Part shown: one piece after another, positions 162 to 62,117 of the stretch
Numbering within the stretch: the first letter of the stretch is position 1
Layout: each line of letters starts with the position of its first letter
Assembly: GCA_036785375.1 (NCBI GenBank)
Contig: JAWMAR010000726.1
Coordinates: 372,001-436,000 of the forward strand
DNA from: Leucoraja ocellata
Taxonomy: Eukaryota
DNA length: 64,000 bases
Direction of reading: 5' to 3'
Translations under genes and position numbers: made by a program
Notes under the pieces: model-generated
The model's database searches: none
The model's input: the letters and a program-made list of their open reading frames with translations, nothing else
Told to the model about the DNA's origin: nothing

Positions 162-635
162 GTAGGCAGATGGGATGAGTTCTCTCTTTCCATCGATCTG
201 TGGAGTACAGGTTTATTATTTTGGATTTTAGGGGCAGCACAAAAGCGCAGCAACAGAGCTGTCCTGGCCTTTTTCTGACCTCAAGTTCCCTTCCCTCTAC
301 TTTCAGTCCCAACCTGACACGTCACCCATCCTCTCTCTCCAGAAATGTTGCCTGACCCGCTGAACTACATCAGCACTTTGTGTCTACCTTTGCCAGCATC
401 TATAGTTCCTTTCTACACAAGAGCTGCTGCCTCCGAGCACCTGAGACACGGGTTCTATCCTTACACGGGTGCTGCATGTGCGGAGTTTGGATGAATCTGT
501 GCTCAGAGGGAACAGGGACATTGGTTTAGGTTCAGAAATATCTTTAGGTTTATTATTGTAATGTGTACAGTGAAAAGCTTTGTTCTGCATGTTATCCAAG
601 CAGATCAGATAATGCTCTACATAATACTATGCATT

Positions 636-1698
636 TCAAGTCAAGAGTCAAGAGTGTTTTATTGCCATATGTCTCAGATAGAACAATCAAATTCTTACTT
701 ACTGCAGTACAACAGAATATGTAAACATATTACATAACGCGAGAAAAAAAGTTCAGTGTGTGTGTGTGTATGTACATGCACACATACTCAATAGATAGAC
801 AAATATAGTGCAATAATAATAATAATCTGTTGTAGTTCAGAGCTTATTTGTTGTTGTGTTTAATAGCCTGATGGCTGTAGGGAAGAAGCTGTTCCTGAAC
901 CTGGACGTTACAGTTTTCAGGCTCCTGTACCTTCTTCCCGATGGCAATGGTGAAATGAGTGTGTGGCCAGGATGGTGTGGGTCTTTGATGATGAAGGCTG
1001 CCTTTTTGAGGCAGCGACTTCGATAGATCCCTTCGGTGGTGGGGAGGTCAGAGCCGGTGATGAACTGGGCAGTGGTCACAACTTTCTGCAGTCTTTTCCA
1101 CTCCTGGACGCTCAAGTTGCTGAACCAGGCCACGATGCAACCAGTCAGTATGCTCTACTGTGCACCTGTAGAAGCTCAAGAGAATCCTCTTTGACATACT
1201 GAATCTCCGTAATCTTCTCAGGACGTATAGGCGCTGATGTGCCTTCTTTATAATTGCATCAGTCTGCTGGGTCCAGGAAAGATCTTCAGAAATATGCACG
1301 TCCAGGAATTTGAAGCTCTTGACCCTCTCCACCATCGATCCGTTGATATAAACAGGATTGTGAGTCCTCATCCTTCCCCTTCCAAAGTCCACAATCAGTT
1401 CCTCGGTTTTACTGGTGTTGAGAGCCAGGTTGTTGTGCTGGCACCATTTGGTCAATCGGTCGATCTCACTTCTATACTCTGACTCATCACCATCTGTAAT
1501 TTGTCCAACAACAGTGGTGTCATCGGTGAACTTGATGATGGTGTTCGCACTGTGTCCGGCTGCACAGTCATGAGTATAGAGTGACTACAGCAGGGGGCTG
1601 AGCACGCAGCCTTGAGGTGCTACCATACTGATTGTTACTGAAGATGAAGTATTTCTGCCAATTCGAACAGACTGTGGTCCGTGGATGAGGAAGTCGAG
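636..1698 (-). mobile_element. Rex1/Babar- or L2-type non-LTR retrotransposon, 3' part, frameshifted
   Basis: Minus-strand ORFs WCQHNNLALNTSKT..KAHQRLYVLRRLRRF and LPSGRRYRS..RFRNSFFPTAIRLLN. Tail with CAATAAA and short tandem repeats. Confidence 0.85.
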
Positions 1699-1714
1699 GA
1701 AAGTGTGAAGCCTT

Positions 1715-2330
1715 GAAAGTGGCTTACAGAACATTGGCCTTGATCGGTCCTATTGACAATAGAAGTTGGGAGGTTAAGCTACAGTTGTACAAGACATTGG
1801 TGAGACCACATATAGAGTATTGTATTCAGTTGGGGCCACTCGGTTATGGGAAAGATTAAGCTGGAAAGGGTGCAGAGAACTTACGAGAATGTTGCCAGAA
1901 CTCGAACGGTCTGAGCCATTGGGAGAGGCTGGGTAGGGTTGGACTTTATTCCTTGGAGCAGAGGAGGTGGACGAGCGGTGATCTTATAGACGTGTATAAG
2001 ATCATGAGAGGAATTGATAGGATACATTCACAGAATTTATTATCCAGAGTAGGGGAATCCAGAACCAGAGGACATTGATTTAAGGTGAAGGGGGAAAAGA
2101 TTTAATATGAACCTGAGGGGCAACCTTTTTTCCCAATAGGCGGTGGGTATATGGAACGAGCTTCCAGGGAGGTAGTTGAAGCAGGTACTATCATAACAAT
2201 TAAAAAACATTTGGACAGGTACATGGATAGGATAGGGTTAGGAGGATATGGGCCATACATGGCAGGTGGGACTAGTGGGGCATATTGGTCGGTGGTGCTG
2301 AATGGCCTGTTTCCATGCTGTATGACTCTA
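1715..2330 (+). mobile_element. Decayed CR1 LINE 3' end
   Basis: Remnants of LYKTLVRPH.EYCIQ and ERVQR, followed by a GGCCTGTTTCCATGCTGTATGACTCTA tail. Confidence 0.8.
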
Positions 2331-2411
2331 TAATTACAATCAAGTCAAATTCAAGTTCAATAGATAGAGCAAAGGGGAAGTATGGACACACAAAAAAACC
2401 TTCTCAGATGT

Positions 2412-3138: not shown

Positions 3139-3444
3139 GTAACGATCAACCTCAGGTGTTTGGCCTGCATGATATTTTGCTTAGTGGACAGAGAGGAGGG
3201 AGGGAGGGAGAGTAGTTGAGGGATTGGTGCGGAGGGGGGAGGTGGAGATGGGGGAGGGGAGGGAAGAAAATAACATGGACATATAGGAAAAAACATGCAC
3301 TGGACTGGCAAAGAGCAGAATATTTAGCCAACATGTTTCAGATATTAAGGGAACCAAGGGATGGGGGTTAGTGCTGGAAAGTGGTGCTGAGGTCAAAGAT
3401 CAACAAAGATCTTATTGAGCGATGATGATCTGCACCAGCCCCAG

Positions 3445-3725
3445 GGGCCTCCAGCTGTTGCGGGACCTCCAGCTGTTGCGGGACCTCCAGCTGTTGCAGG
3501 GCCTCCAGCTGTTGCGGGGCCTCCAGCTGTTGCGGGGCCTCCAGCTGTTGCAGGGCCTCCAGCTGTTGCAGGGCCTCCAGCTGTTGCAGGGCCTCCAGCT
3601 GTTGCGGGACCTCCAGCTGTTGCGGGGCCTCCAGTTGTTTCAGGGCCTCCAGCTGTTGCGGGGCCTCCAGCTGTTGCGGGACCTCCAGCTGTTGCAGGGC
3701 CTCCAGCTGTTGCGGGGCTCCAGCC
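3445..3725. repeat. 18-bp minisatellite (GGGCCTCCAGCTGTTGCR) x ~15
   Basis: Direct reading. It explains the repetitive ORFs in several frames. Confidence 0.95.
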
Positions 3726-4249
3726 ATTGCCTTCTTTGACAAGTGATGTTCTTCTCCTCGCCCCTCCACCTTTGTGTCCCGAGGGAGCCTCCCACAGCCG
3801 ACCGACCTCGAGGGTGGGGTAGGCCAGACCCCGGTTCCGTCTCCTCTCCTACCGGCCTCACTCCTCACCCGTCACGTCCAACGTTGTTCCCGGCTCCATC
3901 CTCCTGGTATCTCTCTTGTGAAAAGCTGCAAATCCTTTCCACCTGAACCAGGGGTTCCCTTTCTCCTCTCATTCTTTCTTTGCCTTTTTATTTGTTTTAC
4001 TGCTTGTGTTTAGGAAGCAGACCAATCTTTTGGGATTCCTTTTTTTTGTGTATTTCCCTCCCTAACTCTCTCCCTCCCTATTAATTAAAAAAAAAAAAAA
4101 CCTCTTATGATACTCTCAGAACATTGAAGTTGTGCACATGGATTACCATGGAAATGCTTCAGACCAAGTGTGGATAAATGGGACAAGTAATAGATGGATA
4201 ATTATGGTCAGAATAGACATGGTGGGCTAGTTGTAATTCTTTTATTCTC

Positions 4250-4970: not shown

Positions 4971-5155
4971 AGGGCCTGTCCCACTTTGGTGACTCTTTAG
5001 GCGACTGCCAGGGACTAGTTTTAATGGAATTCACCCGCGACACCTGGCGTCAACGTACGACAGCAAAAACTGTCGCCACTGTCGACGAAAAGTTTTCAAC
5101 ATGTTGAAAATTTTGCGGCAGTCGCCTGTAGTCGCCCAAAAGTGGGACAAACCCT
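4971..5155. mobile_element. PIF/Harbinger-type MITE
   Basis: TIRs AGGGCCTGTCCCACTTT / AAAGTGGGACAAACCCT, with a central palindrome TTTTCAACATGTTGAAAA. Confidence 0.75.
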
Positions 5156-5407
5156 AAAGTGTCTACAGTATGGTGGAACTATAAAGGTTTGGGGCTTTTC
5201 TTACTATGGCAATAAGGAGGCATTCCTTTTCCATAGAAAATGTTATTTTCACCATGTTTTGCTGGCTGAGTATATTTTGAAGATATCAAGCACATTGAAT
5301 TGATGTGATGCTAAAACCACCACTGGTATCAATTTTTATGTGAATTGTGCATATTCATTGTTTTGGTCCTTTACGAAGAAAGGTAATTGTCTCCTTAAAT
5401 CATTTAG

Positions 5408-5525
5408 GGAGAAAGGGCTTTATAGTCCAGTGAAACGACAGCTGAATTCAGAAAACACCAGGGATGAAGATTCTGAGTCATGGGTTAGCAAAGAGCTTGG
5501 CTTGACCTGTGCAGATTTGGACGAG
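5408..5525 (+). CDS. EME2: EME2 coding exon
   Basis: tttAG acceptor, phase 2 matches the previous exon. EKGLYSPVKRQLNSENTRDEDSESWVSKELGLTCADLDE, then a GT donor. Confidence 0.75.
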
Positions 5526-5930
5526 GTCTGTGTTGCTTTTCTCTATTAGTTGGTTTCTCTGAGCTTCAAACTTGGTTGACAATCCACTTTGAAGAATAAG
5601 TATTTTGGGCAAAAGTCATAAGTGGGAGAATGAAGAAGGTTCCCATCCTGAAACATCACCTACCCGTGTTCTCCATTAATGTTGCCTGGCCCGCTGAGTT
5701 ACTCCAGCACTTTGTCCTTTTGTGTTCTTAGATTTACCGACGGTGGCTGAATCAACCAGTGCCTTCAAAACAGACCTGGATAAGCCTATGGGGAATGAGA
5801 CTGATGAGATTGGACTGGTAAAAGTGAGGCAGGCTAATGGGGCTAAATGGCCTCCATTTGGTGCCTTAACAATTCTAAGATTCTATGACCAGCACTTTTC
5901 TTGAATAAAAGGTAGATTTATATTCTGGAG

Positions 5931-6257
5931 TAAGAAACATCCAGATGCCGGTTTACACCAAGGATAGACACAAAATACTGGAGTAACGCAGCGGATCAGG
6001 CAGCATTTCTGGAGGAAAGGAATAGGTGACGTTTCGGGTCAAAACCTTTCTCATACATCTAGTTCCCACCGCCACCCCCCCGACCCGAAACGTCACCTAT
6101 TCCTTTTCTCCAGAGATGCTGCCTGACCCGCTGAGTAACATAGAAAATAGATGATGGAGTGGGCCATTCAACCCTTTGAGCCAGCACCGCCATTCAATAG
6201 GATCATGGCTGACCATCCACAATCAGTTCCATTTTGCATTTTGTGTCTATCTTTTAC
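5931..6257. mobile_element. Fold-back Penelope-LTR-derived element with a nested CR1 tail (~6137-6232)
   Basis: Inverted arms, with ATTCTGGAG duplicated at 5922-5930 and 6258-6266. Confidence 0.75.
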
Positions 6258-9440: not shown

Positions 9441-10769
9441 CCTTAGTAGCTTTGTCTTCAGCTACCTATGTCTGAAGATCAGGAATTCCCTTCTATTTCT
9501 TTAACTTCACTTTCCTCAGTGACTTTGCTTATAAAATGTCTCTTTTAATATCTCCATACATACCTCATTTTAATTATTTTTTTTTACTACTACTGTGAAA
9601 TGTTTTAGTATGTTTTGTGATAGTGAAGGTGGTGTGCAAATGGAATTAGCGTCAGTTTTAAAATACAAGCAATTCTTCTTCTTTCGTGTCCATCTTCCAC
9701 GTTTCAAATGTTGACATCGCTGTCATTGTCCATCCTGAAAAGGACGCAAGCTACCGGCGACATTCAGTGGGAGCCATCACTTATTGCAAAAGATGGTGGT
9801 GGTAGCAGAATCAGCTCAGGATACTTCCAGTTTCCAGCCCTGTGACGTGGACGCTTCTGCTATAATTAATACCTTGTTTTACTTTGTCAGTGCATCAGAT
9901 GTAACGGGAGAAGTTGATCCATTAGCATAGAAAGGAACCCATTTACTGCAGGGTGACTTGGGGGGGGAAACATATACCCTTTCTGCCACTCAACCCACTG
10001 AATCTGTGCAAGTTCTCAGAGGGAAATAATAACTGAATACCATTCCCTATTTTCTTCTCTCATTATTTCTTGTAAGGGATACAGTGAATAACAATATACT
10101 GCATTGACAAACACAATATCCCAATCTTCTCTTTGCATTTATGAAAATGCATTATGCTCTACCCAGCCAAGTCTTCTCTCTAAACACAACAGTTTCAGTT
10201 TGATCCTTAAACTGCTCCAAGAGTAAGATTTATGGAGAAAAGGACTAGGTGACGTTTCGGGGTCGGAACCTGTCTGAAGTTCTGAAAGACCTATTTTTAT
10301 CCAGCTTTCCCTCAATATGCGTTGAGTCTCACCCATTCTAAATGTCATACTGATCAAAGGAAATTTGCGTTTACTTCAGGAGTTTCAACAGTAATACAAA
10401 ACAAACAGAAAATTATCAAATCAATCGTTGATTCTCAGCGCCGGCAGCTTGAACTCTCAGTCCCCAAAACCATCGAATGTTCGGGGTCCACGATAAAGTA
10501 CACAAATAGTGAAAACCAAAGAAATGAAACTGAAAAATCAGAATCTAATTCAGGGTAAAGGCTACTGGAAAATTAATCCAACCTCCTATGAAGAGTTAGA
10601 GTTCCACATCCACACACCACTGATCTCAAGACACTTTCTTCAAAAATCTACTTGCTTTTTTTGTTGCTGTAATTACAGCCATAATTGGGAACTTTTGCCA
10701 TTGTCTTTGAAATGCTGCCAGCCTATTGCAAATTTGTTCCAAATCTTTATTGATCTTTTTTAGCACACT

Positions 10770-12049: not shown

Positions 12050-12901
12050 GGTAAACCCTCGTTATAACTGACCATGGGGAGGGGGGATGGTGTCCGTTAC
12101 TGCCGATTGACCGCTATAACAGAGTAAAGGATTACCGAGCAAGAGTATCATTGCACGAGAAGTAGAAAAAAAAACTGCAGATGCTGGTTAATACACAAAA
12201 GCGCTGGAGTAGTGGATTAACTCAGCAGGTCAGGCACTGTCTCTAGAGAACATGGATAGGTGATGTTTCACGTCGAGACCCTTGTTCAGACTCTCGGTGA
12301 GCTGGCGGCCGAGGGAGAAGTGAGGATCGGCGGAGTCATTGGTCGCGGGGTGTGGGCAGCCGGACAGGTGTGGGTTGGCAGTGGTGGTGGCAGTGGTAAG
12401 CGTGGCCTGGAAGCGGCCGAGGAGGCTGAGTGGGCCGGCAGTGGCGTCAGTAGGTCCGGCCTGGGAGGCGGCGGGGAGGCAGTGCGGGCCGGGTTTGTCT
12501 GCGGCAGTCCAGCCTGGCTGTGAAGGTTGGTGGGACTGGTCTGGAAGCAGCTGGGGCGGGGGTGAGGATTGGCGCCAGCTTCGGTGGTCCTGGCCTCAGA
12601 GAGGCCAGGTGAATGTTGGCACTGCGTCTCCGAGTGCCGCTGCGGGTCTGGGGTATTGTGGCAGACAGATGCGCGGCGCAATCCAGCGGTGGGTCCGAAT
12701 CTGAAACGCCACCTATCCATACTCTCCAGAGATGCTGCTGAGCCCGCTGAATGACTCCAGCACGTTGTGTCATTCATCATTGCATTGTAACCAGCAACCT
12801 GCGTTCTCAAAGAGACAGCGGTGACTGATTATTGTGGAGATGCACCACCCACTAGAACTGAAATCCATTATGAGGAGGTCTGCAATAACAAGGGTTTACT
12901 G
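12050..12901. mobile_element. Tc1/mariner Tigger-like MITE with nested insertions
   Basis: TIRs GTAAACCCTCGTTAT / ATAACAAGGGTTTACTG, followed by TA. Related copy at 25868-26240. Confidence 0.6.
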
Positions 12902-13960: not shown

Positions 13961-14615
13961 TGTAATATGGCTACCAGAGCATGTCAGAAGCTGGGTATAG
14001 AAAGAGTCTGAGGTAGGCAAAAGTGCTGGAGAAACTCAGCAGGTGCAGCAGCATCTATGGAGCGAAGGAAATAGGCAGCGTTTTGAGCCGAAACCCTTCA
14101 GAGTCTGAAAGGTTGTTGAAAACCAGGTGACGTAGGTATAAATACCATGGCTATACGAGGCTGGGTATTCTGCAGAAGCAATTCACCTTGTGACACCACA
14201 AAGTCTTCCTATGAAGCACGTCAGTGGTGTGACATCATTTTGCCACCTGTCTGGAGGAGTGCAACATCAGAAACGCACTCAGCTCAGCACCATCCACAAC
14301 ACAGCAATCTGGAATGTCTGTAGCCAATTCCAACACCACAAATATTCATTTCTTCCACATTTAACACAAAAATACACTTCAGTCACTCACCCAGGCTACT
14401 GCCAAATGTACGACCTTTACCTGAAACCTTTTGCCTGCAAAGGTATGTGGAAAATTCCTGAAAGATCAAAGTCACACACAATCCCAACATGGACAATAGA
14501 CAATAGGTCCAGGCCCTTAGGCCATTCAATGTGATCATGGCTGATCATCCCCAATCAGTACCCCGTTCCTGCCTTCTCCCCATATCCCCTGACTCCGCTA
14601 TTTTTAAGAGCCTTA

Positions 14616-14847: not shown

Positions 14848-17819
14848 TTATCTAGCTCTCTCTTGAAAGCGTCCAGAGAACCCGCCTCCACCGTCCTCTG
14901 AGGCAGAGAATTCCACAGACTCACCACTCTCTGTGAGAAAAAGTGTTTCCTCGTCTCCGTTCCAGTGATGGAGCCATCACCGTTCCTTTCAGTCCAGGAC
15001 TCATTCCCTGTAGTGCCATGGAAGTACCCTTACGAGGATTGCAACAGTTCCGGGGAACAGCTCACTAGCCTGAACACAAGACACAGCCAGGTTAACAAAT
15101 AGGATCCACGAACAAAACACAAAATGCCGGAGTAACTCAGCGAGTCAGGTAGCATTTGTGGAGGGAATGGATTGGCAAAGTTTCAGATCAGGACCCTTCT
15201 TCAGGCTGATTATGGCGGGAAAAAGAGAGGTGGGGAGAGGACAAAGTTGATGAATTTGAATTGCAGATGAGATTTATGCTTATGAAACATGTAAGGAATC
15301 ATTAGACGGCATCTTTGAATTCTTCCAAGTCAAAGTATACAAGGAAGTTGCTGTATTACCACCCAGTAGAGCACAAGGGAGGGGAAAGCTAATCAACTAT
15401 AAATTGTAAGTCACTAGCAGGTAGCAAAAGTAGCAAAGAAGCATCACAAAGTTAATAACTGGAGGTCTTGATAGATACATGGACAATACTTTTCAGTTAA
15501 AAAACTTTAATCCTCCATGGAAATTATACGACACCATGTTAAAAACTTAAACTAAGCACTTCTGTAAAAACCCTCAAAGGTAAATTGATAAACTATGTGT
15601 AGTTTTAAACATAATTTAATCTCATAGACTAGTGGTTTAGACCGAGTGAAAAATCATGTCCTCAGATTTAAAGTTTAAAAGAGTAAATTAAATTAAAAAA
15701 AAAAATGAATAAGAGAACAAACTTGACTAAACACATTTGTCTATAGAATAACAATTGGGTCAAATGGCCTACTTCTACTCTACTGATTCATTAACTAAAT
15801 TGCTGTCCAAATACTTCAGTTAGGCTTGGAAAACCAAATTTGGATAAGGATTAAAAAATAAGGATTACATGTGAAGGAGGTGAATCAGCATGGAATTGTT
15901 AGGAAGGACGAGTTATAAAAGTTACAATGACATTCAGCGATGTATTCATTTTCATTCCAACAAAGGAGACTAGAAGTCAAAGGACAATTGAGGTACCAGT
16001 TGATTGGTAGTTGTTTAAAGATGTGCTAACAATTATTTTAAAATTGACCTGCTTACTGTGGAGTGCTAATAAATAGCTATAGGTTTTAAATAGACCAGGA
16101 TCAAGTATACACACAGGCAATGCGATGAGAGAAAAACAAACCATGATGTTAATCTCAAAACTGTTTTTAGTTTAGATTTATTTGGGTTTAAAATTAACTC
16201 TGATCCATACCAAACACAGCCAGTCAATGAATTTGACTTCATTTTTTTGTCTGTTCTATCAACTTGACCTGAACCCAAGACATAATCTGAAGCAGGTCTG
16301 GTTAAGTTGCCAGTCTCAATTCTTGGGATTTATGAAACATTGGGGTCCCGGGAAGGAATGATAACAGCTGAGAAGGTTATAAATAAAATTCAAGTGAAGA
16401 ACCCAGTTCCCCATGATTTAAAGCATGAACTGGAGGGAACAAAAAAGACAAAGTGGAAACTTTATGAAGTACAACAAATCCCACTGATATTAATTGAAAT
16501 AAAATTGCCTTTAAAGATTGTTCCAAGAAAATACATAGCTCGGAGAAAAGTGAACGATTAATGAATAACATGAGGAAATCCTCATCTTTAAAGGTGCCAG
16601 GTTTCTTAGAGGGTAAAATGTTCAGGTGTTGTGAATGTCTTTCAGCCTCCATCTATAATTTACTCTGACCTAAACAAATTACAGGAATTGTTTAATACTA
16701 AAATTATCACAGACATACCCTATAGCTACAAGACGCCAGAAAGTTTGCTAATAGTATAGGAAATTTTGACTGGTGTTAAACTGCCATTTAGTGACATGAT
16801 ACCATATTTTCAATATTGTGTGATATTTCTATGAAATGTATATTATTTTATTTAACATTTGACCAGTTCGTATTTGTATGCATAACAATCAAATATGTGT
16901 GTGATGAGTCGATGAACTGATTTAGAATAGTCAAGGTGTAATCGAGTTAAAGATATTTTGCAACATATGCTGGAAGAATGTTTCCTAGAATGAGAAAAAA
17001 AGGTGATTTCTAGCAATTATAGCAAATCTTATACTTAAAAGTATTTTGATTGATATTAGTACCAGAAAGAGGTAATGGAAACTTGATAGTGATAGTTAAC
17101 TAATACAATCAAGGAGAATAAAATCAAATTCTTTGTCTCAGAAAAAAATAAATTGGGACAATAAAAAATAACTTGCAGATTCCACTAAAGATGGACAGAT
17201 TAGATTGTCACTAAATTACAACTACCACTTCAAGATTAAAGGTATTATTATATACCTTTAATTATTATTATAACTTTGATTATATAAAGATTTCACATTG
17301 AACAAACATTCAGCTTTGATAAAATATTACACACCGGACTTACAGTTAGAGTATCAATTTTAGGCTAAGCACAAGGAAGAATTGAGTGTCACACAGCGGA
17401 ACAGACAGAAGGTACATTACAAACAAGCTTGAGAAGCACAAATCAGAGTCTAAGGCATTACACAGAATGCTTTTACATGATTTTAACAACTAAAATCCAT
17501 CCGAGAGCACAAAATGGTTATTACTCTGTACTGACAAAAGTTTGTAGCATATCATTGTAAACTTGAAAAATGAGATTAAGATTTGTGATAGCTTGACAAA
17601 ATGTATTATCTTTGTATTATTGGATGTGGCCAAATAAATAGTTATGTGATGTGCAACGTGTTGCATCAATTCAAATATTATTAGGGGATCAGGTACAAAA
17701 CAAGGTTTAAGTTGCCACATGATGCCATGTTTGCTTCATTGCTATGCCAGAATCTCTTGAGTTATAGATATCACATCCTGACTGTGAAGAAAGTGTAGTT
17801 ACATTTACAGTGCACATGC

Positions 17820-18130
17820 AGTGGTGCATCTGGTAGAGCTGCTGCCTCACAGCGTCAGAGATCCAGGCTCAATCCTGACCACGGGTGCTGCTTGCATGTT
17901 CTCCTGCGACTGACTGGGTTTCCTCCGGGTGGTCCGGTTTCCTTCCACATCCTGACAAAGAGCGGGTTTGTAGGTTAATTGGCATCTGTAAATTGCTCTT
18001 ATTGTTTCTTGTGTCCTATTGTGGATGCAAAAATAACATAGAACTAGTGGGAATGGATGATGGATGGTTGGCGTGGACTTAGTGGGCCAAAGGGCCTGTC
18101 CTCATGCTGTATCTTTCAATCAAGCAATCA
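17820..18130 (+). mobile_element. tRNA-derived SINE (HE1/V-SINE-like)
   Basis: A/B-box-like head, V-domain-like TTTCCTCCC..AAAGAC core, and a GGGCCAAAGGGCCTGT tail shared with CR1. Confidence 0.8.
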
Positions 18131-19995
18131 AAAATCTCACTTTTAAGCAAGTCATTATAAAACACAAGGACAGGATGCTAGACTGTGAGACACAGAGATT
18201 ATAAAGCTAGGAAACAAAATCACCTAAATTAATTTGTTCAGAAAAGGTAGAATATGGAACAGCTTCTGTGAAGTATAGATTTTAATATACATGTCATTTT
18301 TCTTACTAATATCAAAATCCCATTTTAAAAGCACACACACACACACTTCAATCACCATTCAATCCATCTTGCACCAAGAAGGCAGAAAAGACTATAGTCG
18401 GGAAACATAACATACTTGTGTTCCTAGCACACGCAGAATGGATATTTGAATGTGCATCCTTCCAGATTTGTTTATACATTTTAATGGGGATAAAGTAGAG
18501 CAGATTGTGCAATAGGTGTGCTCACTTCTATTTTAGGCAAAGTGGATTCTTACAACCAAATAACCCACTAAAGCCAAAGCTTCCATCACCTGTAGTTCCT
18601 GTGTCTCCAAAGCCAAATGTGTACCGATGTTGGGATAGGATTCAAAGGAACAATTCAGAATGCAAGGCCAACTATTCGAATGGAACTGGAGGTTGCCAGC
18701 AATTACTTGCATGATTATATCTTTAGTGACCACTAACTAATATCAAGTATGTCACACAGTTGATAAGCATTCTGCATGTAAATTTAACAGAATAAAATAC
18801 CAACTAACATTAGAAATCTGCCCAAAGAAAGACACAAAATGTTGGAGTATCTCAGTAGGTCAGGCAGCAACGCTGGAGAAAAGGAATATGTGATGGTTTG
18901 GGCAATGACCCTTCTTCAGACTGAGTCAGGGGAGAGGGAAACTAAAGATATGCACAGAGGGGGAGCAGTGGGTGAGGGTGTTGCAGAACTTAGAGAGGAG
19001 AACTTCTTCAAAATAGGCATATCTTGAGGAGACTTTGCAGTGGAGCAGACAAAATGTGTAGAAAGGAACTGCAGATGCCTGAAATAGGAAAACGTTCTGT
19101 GTTTATAAATGTTAAACCACACATGAAAGCCATTAACATACTTGTTTACTCAATTAATGATTTTAGGTTGCTTGGATAGTAGACACATCTATTGCATGTA
19201 TCAACAAACACAAGTATATATGTTTCTATAATACAAAACATAGGTTTAGATCAGATCTAAAATTGACATTGACAACTATTTTCTACTAATATAACATTTA
19301 CAATAGTATCCATTTCATCTCACTCTATCCTGAAGGGTCAGTTTCAGAACAATACGACTTACTTCAGATCATCTATGTTATAACAAGTGCAACCCCAAAC
19401 TACTGTCGTTTGTCCAATAACTTGACCTGATCCTCACATATTTATATATATTTTAAGCATTGCTTCTTTATTGCAAATGATAATCAATGCATTTTTCCCC
19501 TCGCCTGATGCAAGTTGAACATGATTGATAGAGCATGCTATGTCCAAGCCAAGAACAAGCAGCACAGAAGCAGCAACCAAATGATCTGCCTGGTCGACTT
19601 GGATAAAGACTCAACCAACGAGGTAGAGTTTTTTTAAAAAGAAATAAGATAGACATGCTAGAAATATTTTGGACAAGATGATCATTTAATATTTTTAAGT
19701 GAAAGCACGAAATACCCTACAAAAAGAGTGCAGATTGAGGAAATAAAATTTGTACACAGGTAACTTTATTGAGAAGAACAGCATCTTAAACCATCATCTT
19801 ACACGTCTGCCAATCTGAGTTCACAAGTAACACAGTCCTCGTTAGTTTGCTGCAAGGAGCTAGAACAATTGAAAATGAAGTTGGGAACTTTACACATCTC
19901 ATGTATAGCAGCAATGGTCCATGTCCACACTAAATACAATTTGAACTGCCATACATGCAATAGTCATGATTTAAAAAGGAATCAACCCAGATGTG

Positions 19996-21306: not shown

Positions 21307-21376
21307 ACACCAGTATTTATTATTTCATTTAAGATTCAGGCCATGTAAAATTAAGCTACATAAAGCTAGGTCATAC

Positions 21377-23223: not shown

Positions 23224-23240
23224 ACTGATCATAATAGTAC

Positions 23241-32397: not shown

Positions 32398-32454
32398 CTG
32401 CGCTACCACAGAACCCGCTAAATAGCCCGCAGCACAGAACGTGTTAAGAGCTTG

Positions 32455-41025: not shown

Positions 41026-41212
41026 TTATTCCATAAGTAGTTAGATATTGTCATTAGCATAGGTGTATTTAAGCAGTTCAGAGCAGTACAGCTTTTGTTT
41101 TTTTGGTTGAATGTTTATAGCACAAGTACTTTGTATTTTAATTGTAATCATAAGACATCAGCACTAAAAACTGAACATGTTTGAAGAAAGGACTTGACCC
41201 AAAACATCACGT

Positions 41213-46500: not shown

Positions 46501-47874
46501 AAGTACTGCTTGGATACAGGGACCACCTACTCAACCGCTACAGTTACCAACGTACTGGAATTCCTGGCGAACCTTCACCACGATGAAGGACTCAGCTACA
46601 GAGCCATCAACACAGCTAGAAGTGCCCTGCCTGTCTATTTAAAACCAGCTCCAGGACAACAGGCTATGGGGTCCCACCCGCTGGTGGTCAAACTAATGAA
46701 GGGTATTTACAACTCTAACCCCCTAGACCAAGGTACACCCATACATGGGATGTCAGTGTGGTCCTGACATACCTCGGGATGGCCACCAGCCAGATCCCTC
46801 AACCTGGAACAATCTATGCTCAAAACACTCATGTTGATGGCACTTGTATCTGCACAGAGGGTCCAGTCACTACACCTATTGCGACTGGACAGCATGCTCA
46901 CAGCTCCAGACCAGATCTCTGCCATTATCCAGGGACTGATCAAACAGAGCAGACCAGGAACACCTAATTCAGTCGTGGAATTCCGGGCTTACCCGCCAGA
47001 ACCACGGTTATGTGCCATGACCCACCTACTATCCTACATAGACACAACCAAAATATTCGAGGGAGATGAAAAGCCTTGTGGGTCAGTCATAAAAAACCTT
47101 ATGGTCGGGCGACGAGCCAAACCATTGCGAGATGGCTCAAGCAGGTGCTAAAACTGCTGGGATAAACACTAACATGTACAAATTTTATTCCACCAGGGCA
47201 GCATCCACGTCAACGGCTAAAAGAATGGACGTGCCTATCGACCACATCCTGGCTACAGCAGGATGGTCGGGGGAAAGACCGTTCAGAAATTTTATAATAA
47301 GCTGTTGGCAAAACCTGTTTTATTTGCAGGAAAGATTTTACAGACTGCAAATATTTAATTTAAGCCCGGGGGAGCAATTTAATTTCTTTGTTGTTATTGT
47401 TAAAAAATACCATTGTGTTTTTCTACAAACGGATTCATTGGTTGATTACGATAACACACTTCCTCCCTCAAGGACTTCGGCAGTGCGTGAAGTAATAACT
47501 GTTACACGGTTTGAAATCACAGAGCTTTGAAGTCTTCACGGAATCACTCGCGTGACTCCGAAGTAAAATAGTAAGATTAAACGAGAACTTACCAGTTTGA
47601 AGTTTGATCTGTATTTTACGAGGAGTTACGATGAGGGATTACGTGCCCTCCTCTCCCACCCTCAATAATATGGATCAAACTGATAAACTGATGTCTCCTT
47701 GTCTTTACTATGTTTACTTCAGTAACTGTGTCTATCTGTGATTCCACACCGCTGCTTTGAAGTATGCCGCGCATGTGTGCTGAGCGGGTTCTTCACGTAA
47801 TCCCTCATCATAACTCCTCGTAAAATACAGATCAAACTTCAAACTGGTAAGTTCTAGTTTAATCTTACTATTTT
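43584..47874 (+). mobile_element. DIRS1-type tyrosine-recombinase retrotransposon, decayed; 5' end lost in the gap
   Basis: RT (KPKQDGGCRIIIDL, HFKME, SIDLKDVYY), RNase H (QTDASAQGWG, VAYINHM, YLPGKLNTVAD), methyltransferase-like segment (IDLFASRLN, YAFPPF, IVPDWPTQPWF), tyrosine recombinase (INTARSAL, SAQRVQSL, STRAASTS..ILATAGWS). An 81-bp inverted pair 47565-47645 / 47794-47874 ends in TTTT. Confidence 0.95.
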
Positions 47875-48021: not shown

Positions 48022-48383
48022 GTGAGCCTCCAAGTGAACATTAAAGTCTAATCTCTTGTCTAATCTCCTCCAATTATCTTGATAATATTTATGTAAAAGT
48101 AGATTTCTTTGCAAATAAGATCCATTTTAAGAACTTTGCAATTAAATCACGTCAGAATTTCTATTGATTTAAGGAATAACATTGAGAGAGATACATTTTG
48201 TAATTGATACGATTTTCTGTCTTATTTTCTTATTTATTTTGTCCTATTAGGGCTCTGCCGGCTCTCAGAGCAACCGCTGCTTATTTCCCCTGTAACATAT
48301 TCTCTTCTGCATACTCAGCAATTGATCCCCTGTCCTCCCAAACATGGCGACAGGGAGAATCCAAGGTCAAGATTGAACCAAGG

Positions 48384-48604
48384 TTAGACACAAAATGCTT
48401 GAGTAAATCAATGGAACAGGCAGCATCTCTGGAGAGAAAGAACGGATGACGTTTCGGGTCGAAACCCTCCTTCAGTCTGAAGAAGGGTCTCAACCCAAAG
48501 CATCACCCGTTCCTTCTCCAGAGATGCTGCCTGTCCCACTGAGTTACTCCAGCATTTTGTGTCTACCTTTGATTTAAACCAGCATCTGCAGCTCTTTCTT
48601 ACAC
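48384..48604. mobile_element. Fold-back Penelope-LTR-derived element with two divergent hammerhead-like cores
   Basis: Palindrome centred on CTTCAGTCTGAAG, with a 12-bp duplication ATTGAACCAAGG at 48372-48383 and 48605-48616. Confidence 0.85.
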
Positions 48605-48754
48605 ATTGAACCAAGGGTGCTGGAGCTCTGTGACTTGAGGTCCATATGTCATACCTGTTTAATAGTTATAGTCATAAAGTCATACTGCCGGGAAACACAG
48701 CCCTTTGGCCAAACGTTCCATTTAAGCGGGTCCCATTTACTCACATTTGACCCA

Positions 48755-50770: not shown

Positions 50771-50925
50771 GGTGTGTTCCTCTCGATCCACAACTGACGC
50801 ATAGTCTTGAAGATGGTCGAGATTTTATCCAAGCCTTTCCAAAGAGCGCAGCCTTTGATGCCATTAATAAAATAATGGCAAAGATTTTAAACAATGATAA
50901 TGAATTTTCTGCACACAACACATGA
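50771..50925 (+). CDS. NUBP2: NUBP2 last coding exon
   Basis: (G)CVPLDPQLTHSLEDGRDFIQAFPKSAAFDAINKIMAKILNNDNEFSAHNT*, preceded by a polypyrimidine tract and AG. Confidence 0.92.
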
Positions 50926-50926
50926 A

Positions 50927-51161
50927 TACACAAAGAACTGTAGATGCTGGTTTACTAAAAAAAAAAAGACACAAAGTGCTGGAGTAACCAAGCAGATTAG
51001 GCAGCATCTCTGGAGATCATGAATAGGTGACGTTTTGGGTCGGGACCCTTCATCATACTTCAGTGGAGTCTGAAGAAATATCCCAATCTGAAACGTCACC
51101 TATACATGTTCTCCATATAAACTGCCTGACCCACTGATTTACTCCAGCACTTTGTGTCTTT
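50927..51161. mobile_element. Fold-back Penelope-LTR-derived element directly after the NUBP2 stop codon
   Basis: Inverted arms, with ACATGAA duplicated at 50920-50926 and 51162-51168. Confidence 0.75.
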
Positions 51162-52589
51162 ACATGAACCTAGAAACGAATCTGTCATTTAAGCTTTCAA
51201 GCTTGTTCTACAGTTCAGTGATACTATCGCTGACTTGAGAGCTAATGTCTTTGCCCAAAATCTCGTGATAATAATCTCATGATAATGTATCAAAATCTGT
51301 CACGGCATTTAAAATCAATAATTGACTTGGCACCAGTTGGCATTTGTGGAGGAGTTTTTTGTACCTCCATAATATTTTGAGTGGAGAAGGATATCTTAAC
51401 ACTTGAAAGAACTGCCTTAATTTTCTAGACTGTCCCTGACTCTTAAATCACCAGAAATAGTTTTTGTCTGTCTACATCGGTCAATTCCCCAATAATATCT
51501 TGAAAACAATCATGTTTTCTCATCATTCTTAACTTCCAGGGAATACAATCATTCCTTACTAGCAATAAATATCAAATATTGTTCTTTGTAAAATTTTTAT
51601 TGGACAGCACGAATGGAGGATTGGAGAGCAGAAGCATTTGGATTCCCTGGGATGTAACATTCCTGGGATATAGCAATATGATGATGAATATTTATTCCAG
51701 AAATGGAAATATGTTTTATAAATACTGGAACACAAATATCTTTGTAATGCTGACTGAAAATGTATATTAAAAAATAAATGCTGTGCACCCAGTTAATTTT
51801 ATGAATATGCTTGAAGATCTGTAACTTGAGCTTTGTGGTAAAGACTACAAGACATTCTGTTCTAGGTGCTAACATAAGTGCACGAGGCTTAGCTGTGTTG
51901 CCCTACGAGAGGCTAAATCTGGGAGTTATCTGCTTGCGCAGAATTGGCCTGATATTTTTAACATCGGGTGTATCGCGTAGAACAGTGGTTCAACTAGCAA
52001 TTTGAACTTTTTCAAAATAGCATTTTTAAATTGATATAAACATCAGGCATTAAAGTTATATGGCAATTGATTTCTAATTGCAGGCGCTCCCTGACATACA
52101 TAATAGGTGACATAACGTAAACTGTCACATAAGCAATTCTTTAAGCCCACTGGTTTATTTCCAAGTTGTGTGCCTTGGTGGTCTCTGTAGCAGCACGCTA
52201 CTGCACATGCAGCTGTTTCTGCATGCCAGTCTTGTGGATACTCGTATGTAGTCTCCACGTTGGAGCTTCCCCAGTGATCTCTGTGTCGGAGCTCCCATCG
52301 TGGTCTCCACGTCGGAGCTCTTCCCACCCATTGGTCTTGCACTGGGCCTACACAGTGCAAATAGTAAATTTACGCGTACGCTGTACCACTCCCATTTCGA
52401 CTTGCGTAACATGACTTGCGCAAGGGTCCACGAGATGTAACTCTTGTCGAGGAGCATCCGTAATAGGCTTTCAAGTTAGATTTAATATCACTTTCTATAT
52501 TCAAAACTTTCCTTGATTGAAGCATATGTAAAAATAGCATGTTATTTGGTAGACTACATTGTACATATCTCTTATTAAAAAAATAATAA

Positions 52590-52788
52590 GATCCCACCAC
52601 TGACCACATTTTCCCATCTCCTCCCCTTTCGGCTTTCCGCAGAGACCGCTCCCTCCGTAACTCCCTGGTCAATTCATCCCTTCCCACCCAAATCACCCCC
52701 TCCCCTGGTACAGGAAATGCTACACTTGTCGCTTTACCTCCTCCCTCGACTCCATCCAAGGACCCAAGCAAGCTTTCCAAGTGAGGCA
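52590..52788 (+). mobile_element. Penelope-like element ORF fragment (RT-endonuclease linker)
   Basis: DPTTDHIFPSPPLSAFRRDRSLRNSLV..., then C..C..TSSLDSIQGPKQAFQVR. Confidence 0.75.
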
Positions 52789-52789
52789 A

Positions 52790-53253
52790 TATATGATTAC
52801 AATCGAGCCATTTACAGTGTATCAATATGCGATAAGGGAATAATATTTAGTGCAAGGTAAAGCCAGCAAAGTCCAATCAAGGATAGTCTAAGGGTCACCA
52901 ATGAGATTGATGGTAGTTCAGGACTGTTCTCTGGTTGTGGTAGGATGATTCAGTTGCCTGATAACAGCTGGGAAGAAACTCCCTGAATCTGGAGGTGCGT
53001 TTATACACTTCTATACCTTTGCCTGATGGGAGAAGAGGGAAAGGCCAGGGTGCGACTCGTCCTTGATTATGCTACTGGCCTTGCCAAGGCAGCGTGAGGT
53101 ATAAATTGACTCAATGGAAGGGACTTTGGTTTGTATAATGGTCTGGGCTGCATCTACAATTTGCTGCAATTTCTTGCGGTCTTGGATGGAGCTGTTCCCA
53201 AACCATGCTGTAATTCATCCTGATAAAATGCTTTCTGTGGTGCACCTGTAGAA
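52790..53253 (-). mobile_element. Rex/L2-type LINE 3' end
   Basis: Homologous to 8925-9440. Confidence 0.75.
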
Positions 53254-55178: not shown

Positions 55179-56549
55179 TATGTGTTATTATTTTTCTGCA
55201 GAATATTGGTCTTGAATAGGTTAAATTATCCGTTATATCTCTTCCTTGAACTCTGGATGATCTTGTAGTGGTTCTGCCTCCCCTTCCACCTTCCCCATTC
55301 CTTCCTCCAACTTCACAATTTGCAACTTTTCTATCCTTGAGCTTCACAATTTGCAACTCTATCCGTTTGGCTCACATCTGTTTTTTTTTTTTCATCTCTG
55401 GCTTTCCTTCAACAATCTGTCTATCAACCCCCCTACCCCCTTCCCCTTGCCTGTGTTCCCCTATTACTGCCCCTCTCTTCCAACTTTATCCTATACTCTG
55501 CAATCAGTCACAGGAAGGGTCCCGACCCAAAACATCATCTATCCATTCTCCAGAGATGTTGCCTGACCCACTGAGTTACTCTGGCACTTTATGTCTTTCT
55601 TTGATAAGCCAGCATGTGCTGTTCCTCATTCTTAACTTATCCCTTGATTTTTTTTTGTTGCAGTGATGTTAAGATCCATGGGTGTATTGGTGTCTTTTTC
55701 ACTATGTTCAAACCTTACTCCATAATCTAATTTCTGGGACCTCTCTGTTAAGGATGAGACTACAAACGATCTGGAACTTCCAAAAGACGACAAATGGGAA
55801 AAATTAGGCAAAACAGTAAGTGGATGGGGAATTTAGATTTTAATTAAATTCTGAGCTTTATTCTGTTTCAAAATTGAAGCAAAGACCAATGCAATCGGCA
55901 CGACCCTTTGTCAAAAAGCAAAGATCTCATACATATTTTTACACATACACATGAAAGATAACAATTCTGTTCAAAATTTTCACAAAACTCCACTTAATAA
56001 ATAATTTAGACATCTAAATTTGTAATGCGGCTGAAATTTGCTTTTAGATTTAGTGGAAGTATAGGCTTAAAACTGAATTTTTAAAAATGAAATAATGTGT
56101 AATTTCCTTTGTGTGTCACTAATAGGTGTGTTTAGTTTTGGAGTAACTTAAGTATCACCGATGATTTGATTTCTGATTTACAACTTCATGGGAATGTCAT
56201 AGATTACTTCCATGGATCTTTTCTTTCTTTGCTCAATACTGCTCTTTTAGTCGTCTGCCATCCTACCACTGACCCACTCTTTTGACTTTCTCGGCATCTT
56301 AAAACTCATTTAGTTAAGGTTTTCCAGTGTTAATAAAAGGCAAAATCCTGCAGTGTTGCCTCCATGATTCTACAAATGTTCTCTGACATGCATAGCACAT
56401 CCAACACTTCCTCCTTTTATTTAAGGTTTCTAGTATTTCACAGTATTTTGATCTAGTAACGCATTTTGATTCATAATTAGAACAATTTAGCAATTTTTCT
56501 GAGAACTTAGAACAACACAGGAACCACAATTTCTATGCCGAACATCTCC

Positions 56550-57660: not shown

Positions 57661-57927
57661 GAGTCATTGAGCCATAGAGTGATACTTGCCCACACTGGCC
57701 AACATGCCTGCATTTGGTCCCTATCACTGCAAACCTATCCTATCCTGTACAATTTCCCCTAAAGTGCAATACTTCGCATTTGCTTGGATTAAACTCCATC
57801 TGCCATTTCTCCGCACATTTTGTAGCTAATCTATATCCCGCTCTATACTTAACAATCGTGCACAACTCTCAACTTACTAAACTAAACCCATCTTCATTTA
57901 CGCCTAGGTCATTTAGATATATTTAAC

Positions 57928-58592
57928 AAAGAAAGCGAATGATATGTTGGCTTTCATAGCAAAAGGATTTGAGTATAGGAGCAGGGAGGTTCTACTGCAG
58001 TTGTACAGGGTCTTGGTGAGACCACACCTGGAGTATTGCGTACAGTTTTGGTCTCCAAAACTGAGGAAGGACATTCTTGCCATAGAGGCAGTACAGAGAA
58101 GGTTCACCAGACTGATTCCTGGGATGTCAGGACTGTCTTATGAAGAAAGACTGGATAGACTTGGTTTATACTCTCTAGAATTTAGGAGATTGAGAGGGGA
58201 TCTTATAGAAACTTACAAAATTCTTAAGGGGTTGGACAGGCTAGATGCAGGAAGATTGTTCCCGATGTTGGGGAAGTCCAGGACAAGGGGTCACAGCTTA
58301 AGGATAAGGGGAAAATCCTTTAGAACCGAGATGAGGAGAACTTTTTTCACACAGAGAGTGGTGAATCTCTGGAACTCTCTGCCACAGAGAGTAGTTGAGG
58401 CCAGTTCATTGGCTATATTTAAGAGGGAGTTAGATGTGGCCCTTGTGGCCAAAGGGATCAGAGGGTATGGAGAGAAGGCAGGTACGGGATACTGAGTTGG
58501 ATGATCAGCCATGATCATATTGAATGGCGGTGCAGGCTCGAAGGGCCGAATGGCCTACTCCTGCACCTAATTTCTATGTTTCTATATTTCTA
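57928..58592 (+). mobile_element. Young 5'-truncated CR1 LINE with an uninterrupted ORF2 C-terminus
   Basis: 183-aa [41 protein letters not shown]..., intact 3' UTR and TTCTATGT-type tail. Confidence 0.95.
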
Positions 58593-59055: not shown

Positions 59056-60869
59056 TTAGCAGTTAACAAAATAGTCCTCACTAATGTCTCTCAGGTCTGT
59101 ACTAGCAATAGCTTGCGGGCTTGCACATGAGATGTTATTGTATGTATACACCGTTGTATGACTTTCATCTTTTTCTATGGTTGATTGAAAGTAGCGGGGT
59201 ACCACTTGGGGGTTCTCCAAACAGTAATCCCTGAGAAACTTCAGCAAGCAGTCGCAATGCCACTTGTTTCCATCCAGTAGCAACTGTTCGAGTTCTGATG
59301 ACTGTTTCAAAAATTGGACGGAGAAGTTCCTTAGACAATTGCTCTCGAGGTTCAGGTATTTTAACCTGGTCAGAGGCTTAAAAGTATGATTGTAGAAAAA
59401 CTCAATAAAGTTTTCCGATAAATCAAGCCAGGACAGTTGCTGGAGGGGCTGAAAGGTGACGTCGGGAATGTGTGCAAGTTTATTGCTCTTTAACAGAAGA
59501 TATTCCAGCTTTGATATTCCTGTAAACGCATGGGGGGAGAGCTGTATCAGTTTATTGTACCTGAAATCCAGTTCCAAAAGCTCTCGTAGATCACTGAGGC
59601 TCCGGTTATCAATAACTGAAATATGATTCTTTTGCAAGAAGAGTCTTCGAAGGCTGATCAATCCAGAAAATGTGTTTGGTAAAATTCTAGTGATTGCATT
59701 ATTTTCTAAATGCAAGCTATGAAGATGAGGCAGACCTTTAAAGGTATATTCTGGTAAGTTCCTTAGAGAGTTGCTCGATAGATTCAGTACAGCTACATCG
59801 CAAAGACCAACAAATGCCCCTGGTTTAATCTCCTGTATCTGATTGTTATTCAGTGTGAGGATCTCCAAATGGACCAGGCCATCAAATATATTTTCAGGAA
59901 GGCTTTTGATCTTGTTGGAACCAAATTGGAGTTCCTGCAGAAACTGGAGTTCTTTGAATGTCCTGTGCTTTAAGCCTGTGATGGAATTGTTGAGCATTCG
60001 AAGCACATGGAGGTTTAGGAGCCCAGAGAATGTTTCTTCGTGTAATATGGCAATGCGATTGTGGGACAAGTCCAACCACCTGAGAGATTTCATCCCCATG
60101 AAAGCTCTGGGCACGATGGTGCTGATTTGATTGTAGCTCAAATAAAGTTTCTGAAGCTTTTGCAGTTTCACAAAGATGTTCCTCTTTATGATCCTCAGCA
60201 AGTTTCCAGACAGGTCAAGTTCCTTCAGTTCTGTCAAGCTGCTAAAAAGTTGTGGCTGCAGGTAAATCAACCTATTTCCGGCCAAAATAAGCTCCTTTAA
60301 CTGGGACAAGTTATGAAAGCTTGCCGTGGGCAGCACAGCAAGGTTATTCCAACCCAGGTTCAGGTACCAGAGATGGGCGAGGACAGAAAATAATGCTTCC
60401 TCGATTTTGCCAAAATTGTTGTTGTTCAGACTAAGCGAGCCAAGAAACGGAGTGTGAAGAAACACATTTGGTGCCAGACTTTTCAGTTTGTTCCTTTCTA
60501 AATGGAGGTGAACTAGATGGTTCAGGCCGTAGAAGGCATGTGGCTCGATGGTAACGATATGGCCTTTCTCCAGGTTCAGGAAGTCCAGATTTGACATGTT
60601 TCTGAACATATGGGATGGAAGAACTGTGAAGTTGTTGCAATCAAACCAAATGGTTTTGGTGTTAATCGGTACATCTTTGGGAATGCTGGTAAGATTATGG
60701 GAACTGCAATAGACATTCAATTCTTCACTGTAGTCATCAAAAATGCAGGTGCACATTCGAGGACATGAGACATTTTCGTTATATGTTTGCCCCTCTGGTA
60801 GTAACTCTGATTTTGTTCCCAGCGGTGAAATGAATCTCAGACAAGCAATAACCAAGACAAAGCAAGTTT
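59056..60869 (-). CDS. IGFALS: IGF-binding protein acid-labile subunit, main coding exon
   Basis: T-tract + CAG acceptor at 60870. Hydrophobic signal segment, LRRNT (CPRMCTC), ~20 LRRs, LRRCT (GNKWHCDCLLK), ending DLRDISEDYFVNC*. Syntenic position after NUBP2. Confidence 0.95.
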
Positions 60870-60902
60870 CTGAAAAAAAAAAATGCAATGTTATATTCTC
60901 AT

Positions 60903-61700
60903 CCAAAGATAGGCACCAAGTGCTGGAGTCAGTCAGTGGGTCAGGCGACATCGCTGTAGAATAAGGATAGGTGACTTTTTTCGGTCGGGACCCTTCTTCA
61001 GACTGAACGTAGGGGGTGGAGGGTGGGGTGAGGGGGTGAAGAGCAAGAGGTGAGAAAAGATCAGGACCAGCTACACAGATCAGGGCGGCACGGTGGCACA
61101 GCAGTAGAGTTGCTGCCTTACAGCGCTTGTAGCGCGGGAGACCCGGGTTCAATCCCGACTACGGGTGCTGTCTGTGCGGAATTTGTACATTCTCCCTGTG
61201 ACCGCGTGGGTTTTCTCCGAGATCTTCGGTTTCCTCCCACACTCCAAAGACGTAAGGTTTGTATGTTAATTAGCTTGGTGTATGTGTAAAATTGTCCCTA
61301 GTGTGTATAGGATAGTGTTAATGTGCGGGGGTCGCTGGTTGGTGCAGACTCAGTGGGCTGAAGGGCCTGTTTCCGCGCTGTATCTAAACTAAACTAACCA
61401 AATGACCTCAGGCAGGGTGGTGCCCTGGTGGGCTCATTGTTGGTCAGGGAAGGTAAGATCTGAAGAGGGATACAATGTGGAGAGCTGAGGAACTAGTTAA
61501 ATGACTAGGGGGAGGAAGGGGGAGAGGGGAGAGGGCAGGGTAGACGTTACTTAGCAAATTAGCAAATTCAGCATTCATACCGCTGGGTTGTAAGTTGCCC
61601 AAGCGAAATATGAGGTGCTGTTCCTCCAATTTGCATGTGGCCTCACTCTCTGTGGAGGAGGCCCAGGACAGAAAGGTCAGAATGGGAAGGGGATTTGGAA
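60903..61700 (-). mobile_element. Penelope-like element 3' end (GIY-YIG C-terminus plus pLTR), split by a SINE
   Basis: EATCKLEEQHLIFRLGNLQPSGMNAEF is followed on the same strand by the pLTR, which contains CTGAAGAAGGGTCCCGACCGAAA at ~60980-61001. Confidence 0.8.
61083..61397 (+). mobile_element. Full-length tRNA-derived SINE (HE1/V-SINE-like)
   Basis: A box GGTGGCACAGCAGTAG, B box GGTTCAATCCC, CR1-like tail and (CTAAA)n. Confidence 0.9.
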
Positions 61701-62117
61701 TGATTGGCTACTAAGAAATCCCGTAAGCCTCAGTGAACTGAGTGTACAACTTCTTATATTCTCATTCCCTTTGGTTGAAATAAGACAAATAATTAACTTC
61801 TTCATTAGATATTAATAAAGAATAACTATTCACCAGTTGAATTATGAAATATTCAACTAATTCAATGGAATAGAAGGAACTGCAAATGCTGGTTAACAAA
61901 TAAAGATATAAAGTGCTGGGTTAACTCAGCGGGTCAGGCAGCATCTGTGGTGAACATAGATGTTTTAGGTCCGGACCCTTCTTCAGACACAAGACGGGTT
62001 TCTTCACAGTATGAATAAGGGTCCCGACTTGAAACATCACTTATTCATGTTCTCCAGAGATGCTGTCTGACCTTCTAATGAACCTTACAATTGACCTTAC
62101 AATGAACTTCTAATTAA

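Follow-up and report, generated by a model that had tools for sequence, protein, structure and literature searches.

A ~130–150-nt repeat recurs throughout a 64,000-nt stretch of the genome of Leucoraja ocellata (NCBI GenBank assembly GCA_036785375.1, contig JAWMAR010000726.1, positions 372,001 to 436,000 of the forward strand; hereafter, the window). This repeat is the pseudo-long terminal repeat (pLTR), or 5′ leader, of autonomous Penelope-like elements (PLEs), apparently of the Neptune type. Its numerous short copies are probably dead-end reverse transcripts of the pLTR/5′ leader, made anew from the RNA of autonomous elements. A preliminary description of the window had instead interpreted them as a retrozyme-like, non-autonomous family bearing hammerhead ribozymes (HHRs) and mobilised by a Penelope reverse transcriptase (RT), an interpretation that our analysis supports in part.

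To count the copies, we used an iterated nhmmer model (E < 0.01), which gave 35 matches in the window; the reversed sequence, used as a control, gave none. After merging seven head-to-head pairs, which the preliminary description had missed, these matches represent ~27 insertion events. All 20 coordinates listed in that description coincide with nhmmer matches, and its consensus agrees with the nhmmer consensus. A genome sample of 994 kb, made of the window and 93 stretches of 10 kb taken at arbitrary round positions on large contigs, contained 488 matches (0.49 per kb, covering 4.7% of the bases), which extrapolates to a total of ~1.7 million matches in an assembly that includes haplotype duplicates. 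We analyzed 447 of the 488 matches and dropped the other 41, which either lay close to the end of a stretch or were not covered by a reference alignment. Loci of the second haplotype and targeted loci were excluded from all counts, and very short copies are under-sampled by the hidden Markov model.

The identity of the repeat was established from six full-length loci, where the unit is found before the ATG and, in five of them, also after the end of the endonuclease (EN) domain, which is of the GIY-YIG type. The layout is an EN end, a pyrimidine-rich untranslated region (UTR), the unit, the ATG, an open reading frame (ORF) of ~3.7 kb, a UTR and, in five of the six loci, the unit again, ~3.95 kb from the first. 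The ATG lies 163–164 nt after C3 of the CUGA box in all six. The EN C-terminus that precedes the upstream unit copy corresponds to direct pLTRs in a partial tandem structure, and the unit follows an EN C-terminus by 420 nt or less in 85 of 100 cases (counted over loci that include haplotype duplicates). The Penelope origin proposed in the preliminary description is thus borne out by the presence of the unit at both ends of full-length elements encoding RT and GIY-YIG domains. As in other EN+ PLEs, a single ORF carries the RT and then a C-terminal GIY-YIG. It is frameshifted in all six loci, none being fully intact from the ATG, and we found open frames of 745–815 aa plus one of 998 aa. The RT domain (PF00078) scored 30.1 bits, above its cutoff of 29.6, and the GIY-YIG domain (PF01541) 21.3 bits, just below its cutoff of 22.6; homologues carry PF00078/PF26215 and, for some of them, PF01541. 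A Pfam search of three decayed fragments gave no match. Among named proteins, the closest relatives of the element come from sharks and rays. The linker joining RT to EN contains C-x4-C-x2-C in the translations of several loci; since a C-x(2-5)-CxxC linker is given as a Neptune trait, common to Nematis, in PMC8557442, this motif and the vertebrate host suggest a Neptune-type parent. At least eight subfamily references have the unit in common and diverge upstream of its CAG. A coding role of the unit as the protein N-terminus, as in Poseidon from Anolis (PAc), is ruled out, the ATG being downstream. At one locus (L128, ~5120–5460 in the element orientation, minus strand), a tandem array is formed by 66 nt from the interior of the unit (model positions 36–103), without the CUGA box.

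The ends of the copies are sharply defined. The 3′ ends are bimodal, at about +85–100 and +120–133 from C3 of CUGA (modes at about +92 and +130), and the 5′ ends peak at −5 to −1, where 99 of the 175 copies reaching that far stop. The 5′ stop rate in this interval is 0.154 per nt, compared with 0.006–0.017 at +5 to +59 and 0.004–0.006 beyond −30 (n = 374), i.e., about 10–25-fold above elsewhere, and it is still raised at −10 to −30 (0.066 and 0.024 per nt). The peak was seen in each subfamily with enough copies. The preliminary description had set clustered 5′ ends against random truncations of a full-length Penelope; the 5′ ends are clustered and, with the two 3′ sites, the ends are not those of random truncation. 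An alignment artefact at the poly-C tract is ruled out as the source of the peak because none of the 106 solo peak copies has a pyrimidine-rich upstream flank and because 22 of the 28 solo copies with a target-site duplication (TSD) start at −9 to −1, mostly abutting the TSD. Only 32 of the 447 copies (7%) extend more than 60 nt upstream, and stubs made of the pLTR only account for ~93%. Ribozyme cleavage was also rejected as the process setting the ends, as no excess of 5′ ends is found at the predicted cleavage site (+25 to +29, 0.008 per nt).

The main rival explanation assumes the same origin but places the cause of the 5′ edge elsewhere. The RT, primed in the 3′ pLTR of a read-through RNA, would stall at the polypyrimidine tract or 3′ splice site, because of splicing factors or of the C-rich RNA itself, and the short copies would reflect a truncation hot spot. 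A pyrimidine tract and a CAG 1 nt before CUGA are present in all subfamily references, the intron of the D. virilis Penelope ends at helix I (PMC4209133), and the stop rate at −10 to −30 would also fit. We nevertheless consider a stall unlikely, as the peak is also found in subfamilies with different UTRs and without an adjacent C-run, and 0 of 161 copies have the UTR spliced out at a shared donor. RNA evidence came from three raw runs of a related organism (two single-cell and one bulk), and the best-supported RNA joints listed, beyond which there are 163 more, include no GT-AG joint. The latter result, together with the lack of a shared upstream exon among the 161 peak copies (four body matches, at different places) and of distant TSDs for solo copies (3 of 64, versus 3 controls), led us to reject an origin of the copies from spliced templates.

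We then asked if the short copies constitute a family of their own. Short copies resemble long copies as much as they resemble one another. With a margin of more than 4 points as the criterion, 0 of 65 young short copies had a short copy rather than a long one as the closer relative, which points to repeated production from autonomous elements, and in the youngest subfamilies the short copies are 96–100% identical to ORF-bearing ones. Long members occur within the random sample for eight of nine reference groups; those of the ninth came from the targeted loci. Master lineages without ORF-bearing members, as expected of a family resembling short interspersed elements (SINEs), were not found among them. 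The retrozyme-like family of the preliminary description is not supported either: every subfamily has ORF-bearing members, only 9 of 447 copies are in tandem and the motif is minimal, where retrozymes are arrayed in tandem and each of their units bears a canonical type I HHR, and the ends lie off the cleavage site. As regards processing into circular RNA (circRNA), DNA ends did not accumulate at the cleavage site and the RNA reads of the related organism had no end peak. A self-propagating non-autonomous family, SINE- or retrozyme-like, in which a Penelope RT would re-insert short copies or inverted pairs after their transcription and hammerhead processing, would explain the fixed ends, the TSDs, the very high copy number and the initiator-like motif at the 5′ edge. 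The unit is also abundant in RNA reads, though passive transcription accounts for this abundance. In addition to the kinship of the young copies, the scarcity of tandems and the position of the ends, this explanation is made improbable by pair junctions that vary from pair to pair, by a core that is intact in only 34 of the 217 copies spanning the motif and by a helix I with two contiguous pairs.

A large part of the copies, 166 of 447 (37%, where ~2% would be expected by chance), is arranged in head-to-head pairs, compared with 10 copies in tail-to-tail and 9 in tandem orientation. Among these 83 pairs, 46 combine a long (tailed) and a short arm, 2 have two long arms, 9 have two short arms, and 26 could not be classed. 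For the 57 classed pairs, the expected numbers are 28, 11, and 18, respectively (p = 1.4e-6). A more sensitive search gave 54, 2, and 12 among 99 events (25/403 control matches). An exact TSD of at least 7 nt was found around 27 of the 83 pairs, versus 0.8% of controls, and such a single TSD flanking the whole pair indicates that each pair is a single event. Of the TSDs that the preliminary description reported at six or more copies, the existence is confirmed, but three enclose a whole inverted pair and not a single unit. The 83 pairs and the two 3′ ends correspond to the inverted 5′ copy and the optional 30–40-nt tail at one end that characterize EN+ PLEs.

The junctions of the pairs differ from one to another, many being centered on short palindromes and many showing unrelated filler or unequal arms. 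The palindromes, and weakly a strand skew of the RNA reads that looks antisense, would be compatible with self-priming on an antisense template or with the fold-back of a single cDNA at the junction palindromes, as modeled in PMC3846280. This origin of the pairs appears very improbable to us: the two 3′ ends match two internal start sites used on sense RNA in vitro (PMC11167929), filler or arms of unequal length are found at many junctions, and solo copies have the same 5′ edge without any fold-back.

In the reading that we favor, where the stubs are copied from the leader of autonomous RNAs, an RT primed in the 5′ leader would reach the 5′ end of the RNA and run off it at a (T/C)CAGT immediately upstream of the motif, which would create the fixed start. 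This sequence resembles the initiator consensus. Initiator-like motifs have been described in pLTRs (PMC3846280, PMC2377424). The RT-EN protein of the element would make a staggered cut and, like Poseidon in vitro (PMC11167929), use the cut DNA as primer for cDNA that starts at internal sites of the RNA. For a pair, both cut strands would act as primers, each for a separate cDNA and one per start site, and the 3′ ends of the two products would be linked, often via short palindromic microhomology, to give the head-to-head arrangement. Priming in the 3′ pLTR of read-through RNA would account for the long copies with variable truncation (7%). More tentatively, the stubs might be equivalent to ‘strong-stop’ cDNAs that map the transcription start, with an RT-EN dimer priming both cut strands and an obligatory split between the two RNA start sites. 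If true, this obligatory two-site division would explain the PLE tail, the inverted pLTRs and the TSD in one mechanism. The ends of the short insertions, which number on the order of a million, lead to two sharp, testable predictions, one on the RNA start position and one on the use of different start sites by the two cut strands.

Several observations weigh against this reading. The comparison of short and long copies spans only 90 nt, which limits its power. The unit is deeply covered by the RNA reads of the related organism, and these show no place where many molecules begin. Both single-cell runs are skewed several-fold toward one strand in most bins of the EN end (measured at L250:800-1300 and window 61538–61725), probably the one antisense to the element, the strand convention being uncertain; the sense of the skew is opposite to the A-rich end of the SINE. 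The bulk run is balanced, and calibration on a window ORF that we take to be IGFALS-like found no reads there. A nearby TSD was detected at only 28 of 192 solo copies, or 11 of 38, 9 of 87, and 8 of 67 from the youngest age class onward (controls, 3–4.5%). The CAG follows a polypyrimidine tract and occupies the position of the intron end in the D. virilis Penelope (PMC4209133, PMC2377424), so that a stall linked to a splice acceptor would fit too. Finally, Poseidon showed no strand difference in start-site use in vitro (PMC11167929), whereas the pairs described here are asymmetric.

The preliminary description had recognized a motif resembling a minimal HHR, in which one additional nucleotide separates A9 from G10.1. 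The motif is present, and this insertion is a described PLE trait (PMC4209133). Both core boxes, the extra nucleotide at 9/10.1, G10.1-C11.1 and the palindromic 15.2-16.2 are invariant in eight of eight subfamily references, while position 17 is C or U. In all eight, helix I consists of two contiguous pairs followed by a 2 × 2 mismatch and 0–2 further pairs, short of the 4–5 bp of minimal type I hammerheads, which makes the catalytic activity of the motif doubtful. By analogy with PMC4209133 and PMC11167929, weak cleavage, dependent on a dimer or a protein, might occur at most. In the window, only 2 of the 35 matches (core at 21181 on the plus strand and 23223 on the minus strand) retain both boxes undamaged together with a helix II of 4 bp and the 15.2-16.2 pairing. 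The hammerhead search suggested in the same description, performed with Rfam on the window, found no hammerhead family even at E ≤ 1; weak matches to Rfam miRNA (MIR) families fall on inverted pairs. Minimum free energy folds did not form the hammerhead (z-scores of −0.7 to +0.9). Among subfamilies, helix II varies only by a one-sided U-A/U-G change and by loop changes, the 3′ flank of the core is also well conserved, giving a weak contrast between core and flank, and the decay of single copies is neutral, with hot spots at CpG.

The same minimal hammerhead with the extra A was found in at least 120 stretches of metagenome contigs (L291–L410), apparently from animal host DNA, with a better paired and covarying helix I. 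Its positions 1–3 are paired in 53, 47, and 36 of 57 contexts with double changes (shuffle means of 37, 26, and 29), counts that come from related sequences and hence are not a probability; three pairs of helix II had been fixed beforehand by the metagenome search pattern. Neither insertion end is set by cleavage, and the hammerhead-like motif of the repeat would be a passenger.

PLE pLTRs with minimal hammerheads have already been published, as have inverted pLTRs and one-sided tails. According to PMC8557442 and PMC3846280, EN+ PLEs of the Neptune clade share with our element the ORF with RT and C-terminal GIY-YIG, the Cys-rich linker, direct pLTRs, an inverted 5′-truncated pLTR, a 30–40-nt tail at one end, a TSD of 7–17 nt and heavy 5′ truncation. 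Unlike in these accounts, pLTR-only stubs dominate here (~93% of copies, ~4.7% of the sampled bases). Their 5′ edge is sharp, and the pairs follow a measurable long/short rule. The optional tail of these elements was tied to two internal RT start sites by PMC11167929. The minimal type I hammerheads of metazoan PLEs (PMC4209133) have, as here, the CUGAnGA and GAAA boxes, the extra nucleotide at 9/10.1, G10.1-C11.1, a palindromic 15.2-16.2 and no loop 3, and are mostly single dispersed motifs, some of them nearby on opposite strands. Their helix I has 4–5 pairs, versus two contiguous pairs here (as in the D. virilis variant), with a helix II of 4 bp. The same source reports thousands of single dispersed motifs in vertebrates, some of them on opposite strands, as probable truncated PLEs; the examined portion of its main text does not mention chondrichthyans.

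PAc, as described in PMC11167929, likewise has two 3′ ends corresponding to two internal RT start sites ~100–130 nt downstream of the HHR, and cleavage by the HHR does not define its insertion ends. It belongs to another clade, its ORF starts inside the HHR, whereas the ATG is 164 nt downstream here, and its start sites are used without a strand difference. The later steps of PLE insertion are stated there to be unvalidated. Non-LTR retrozymes (PMC7229834; bioRxiv 2026.07.22.740005) are also non-coding, with a type I HHR motif, and related to PLE pLTRs, but form tandem repeats of 150–450 nt with canonical HHRs that yield circRNAs, whereas the copies described here occur solo or in inverted arrangement, their motif is minimal, and the cleavage site does not delimit them. 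Two further papers (PMC6155905, PMC9977147) provided general background only. We found no literature description of the family in cartilaginous fish, of the fixed 5′ edge or of the long/short statistics, although Repbase, Dfam, subscription papers and the supplements of PMC4209133 and of the bioRxiv preprint, which sampled one chondrichthyan, may cover them. The value of these observations is mechanistic, the ribozyme or a new element being ordinary as discoveries. In practice, the stub makes up ~5% of the sampled DNA and is to be annotated as a PLE pLTR, not as miRNA precursors or functional ribozymes.

Within the window, the pairs with an exact repeat on both sides are at 48372–48616 (short minus arm and tailed plus arm, joined at a CAG-T-CTG palindrome; 12-nt TSD at 48372 and 48605), 30908–31153 (short and tailed; 15-nt TSD at 30908 and 31139) and 50920–51168 (tailed and short; 7-nt repeat at 50920 and 51162). 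The four other pairs, defined by nhmmer, are at 5927–6139 (plus arm cut short by a following insertion), 27855–28073 (short and tailed, three matches), 40081–40257 (tailed and short) and 61864–62078 (a tailed minus arm and a decayed plus arm).

Three solo copies show flanking duplications. The copy at 21149–21319 (+) has a long, tailed 3′ end, a core starting at 21181 and a 13-nt exact TSD (21149–21161 and 21307–21319), with 14 extra nt between TSD and unit. The two others have a short 3′ end: 14003–14108 (−), whose 5′ end lies within the CUGA box, has a 9-nt exact TSD at 14003 and 14100, and 23129–23234 (−), with its intact core at 23223, has an 11-nt TSD with 1–2 mismatches. The same type of imperfect 11-nt TSD flanks a partial copy at 34704–34763 (+), and a 7-nt repeat ~20 nt upstream of the tailed solo copy at 12162–12302 (−) may be due to chance.

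The remaining solo copies, all identified by nhmmer, are at 306–421 (+, without CUGA box), 5621–5749 (+, old subfamily), 12687–12808 (+), 37244–37387 (+, starting 2 nt before CUGA), 43202–43336 (−, starting at CUGA) and 55501–55630 (+, tailed). Two copies, at 15111–15217 (−) and 18818–18931 (−), reach ~30 nt into the pyrimidine-rich UTR. Tailed ends are also present in a copy without core at 41800–41908 (+) and in one with an internal deletion at 42392–42470 (+). Partial copies are found at 10228–10276 (−), 30525–30627 (+, old) and 31340–31447 (−), with a weak partial match at 41178–41212 (+, E 0.0045).

Remnants of the parent element are also present. A 5′-truncated element on the minus strand comprises a decayed GIY-YIG C-terminus with a frameshift and stops (61555–61768, tblastn E 5e-13), a 3′ UTR (61015–61554) and a terminal unit (60868–61014). 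The unit had been thought to follow the GIY-YIG end directly at 60.9–61.7 kb, but the two are separated by ~230 nt of 3′ UTR, itself interrupted by a SINE-like insert of ~315 nt at about 61085–61399 (+). An isolated fragment of the RT-EN linker with the Cys motif region of the same element, absent from the preliminary description, is at 52590–52822 (+, tblastn E 6e-14).

The second haplotype is 97–99% identical to the window and differs by several indels of 60–1570 nt (e.g., window 26673–27432 and 45087–46653), which are candidate recent insertions of other elements. In the comparison of filled and empty sites, indels placed from alignment coordinates overlapped no window unit, and two haplotype-specific stretches had no repeat unit inside.

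Other features of the window include a 700-aa open frame with leucine-rich repeats at 59056–61158 (−), presumably IGFALS, and a frame at 19996–20421 (−) that we take to be the SOCS-box end of SPSB3. A dispersed SINE-like repeat, which we assume to be of the HE1/V-SINE type, is present at 61085–61399, 62120–62420, 17830–18120, 22430–22710, and 32170–32400. Many 3′ fragments of CR1-like long interspersed elements were seen (e.g., 41359–41800 and 57917–58580), and at 24329–25797 inverted arms of 87 nt, 1.3 kb apart, surround a Tc1-like transposase fragment (24646–25152). Minisatellites of 18 and 48 nt and a 123-nt inverted repeat of SINE pieces occupy 3391–3772, 35582–36109, and 63149–63400.

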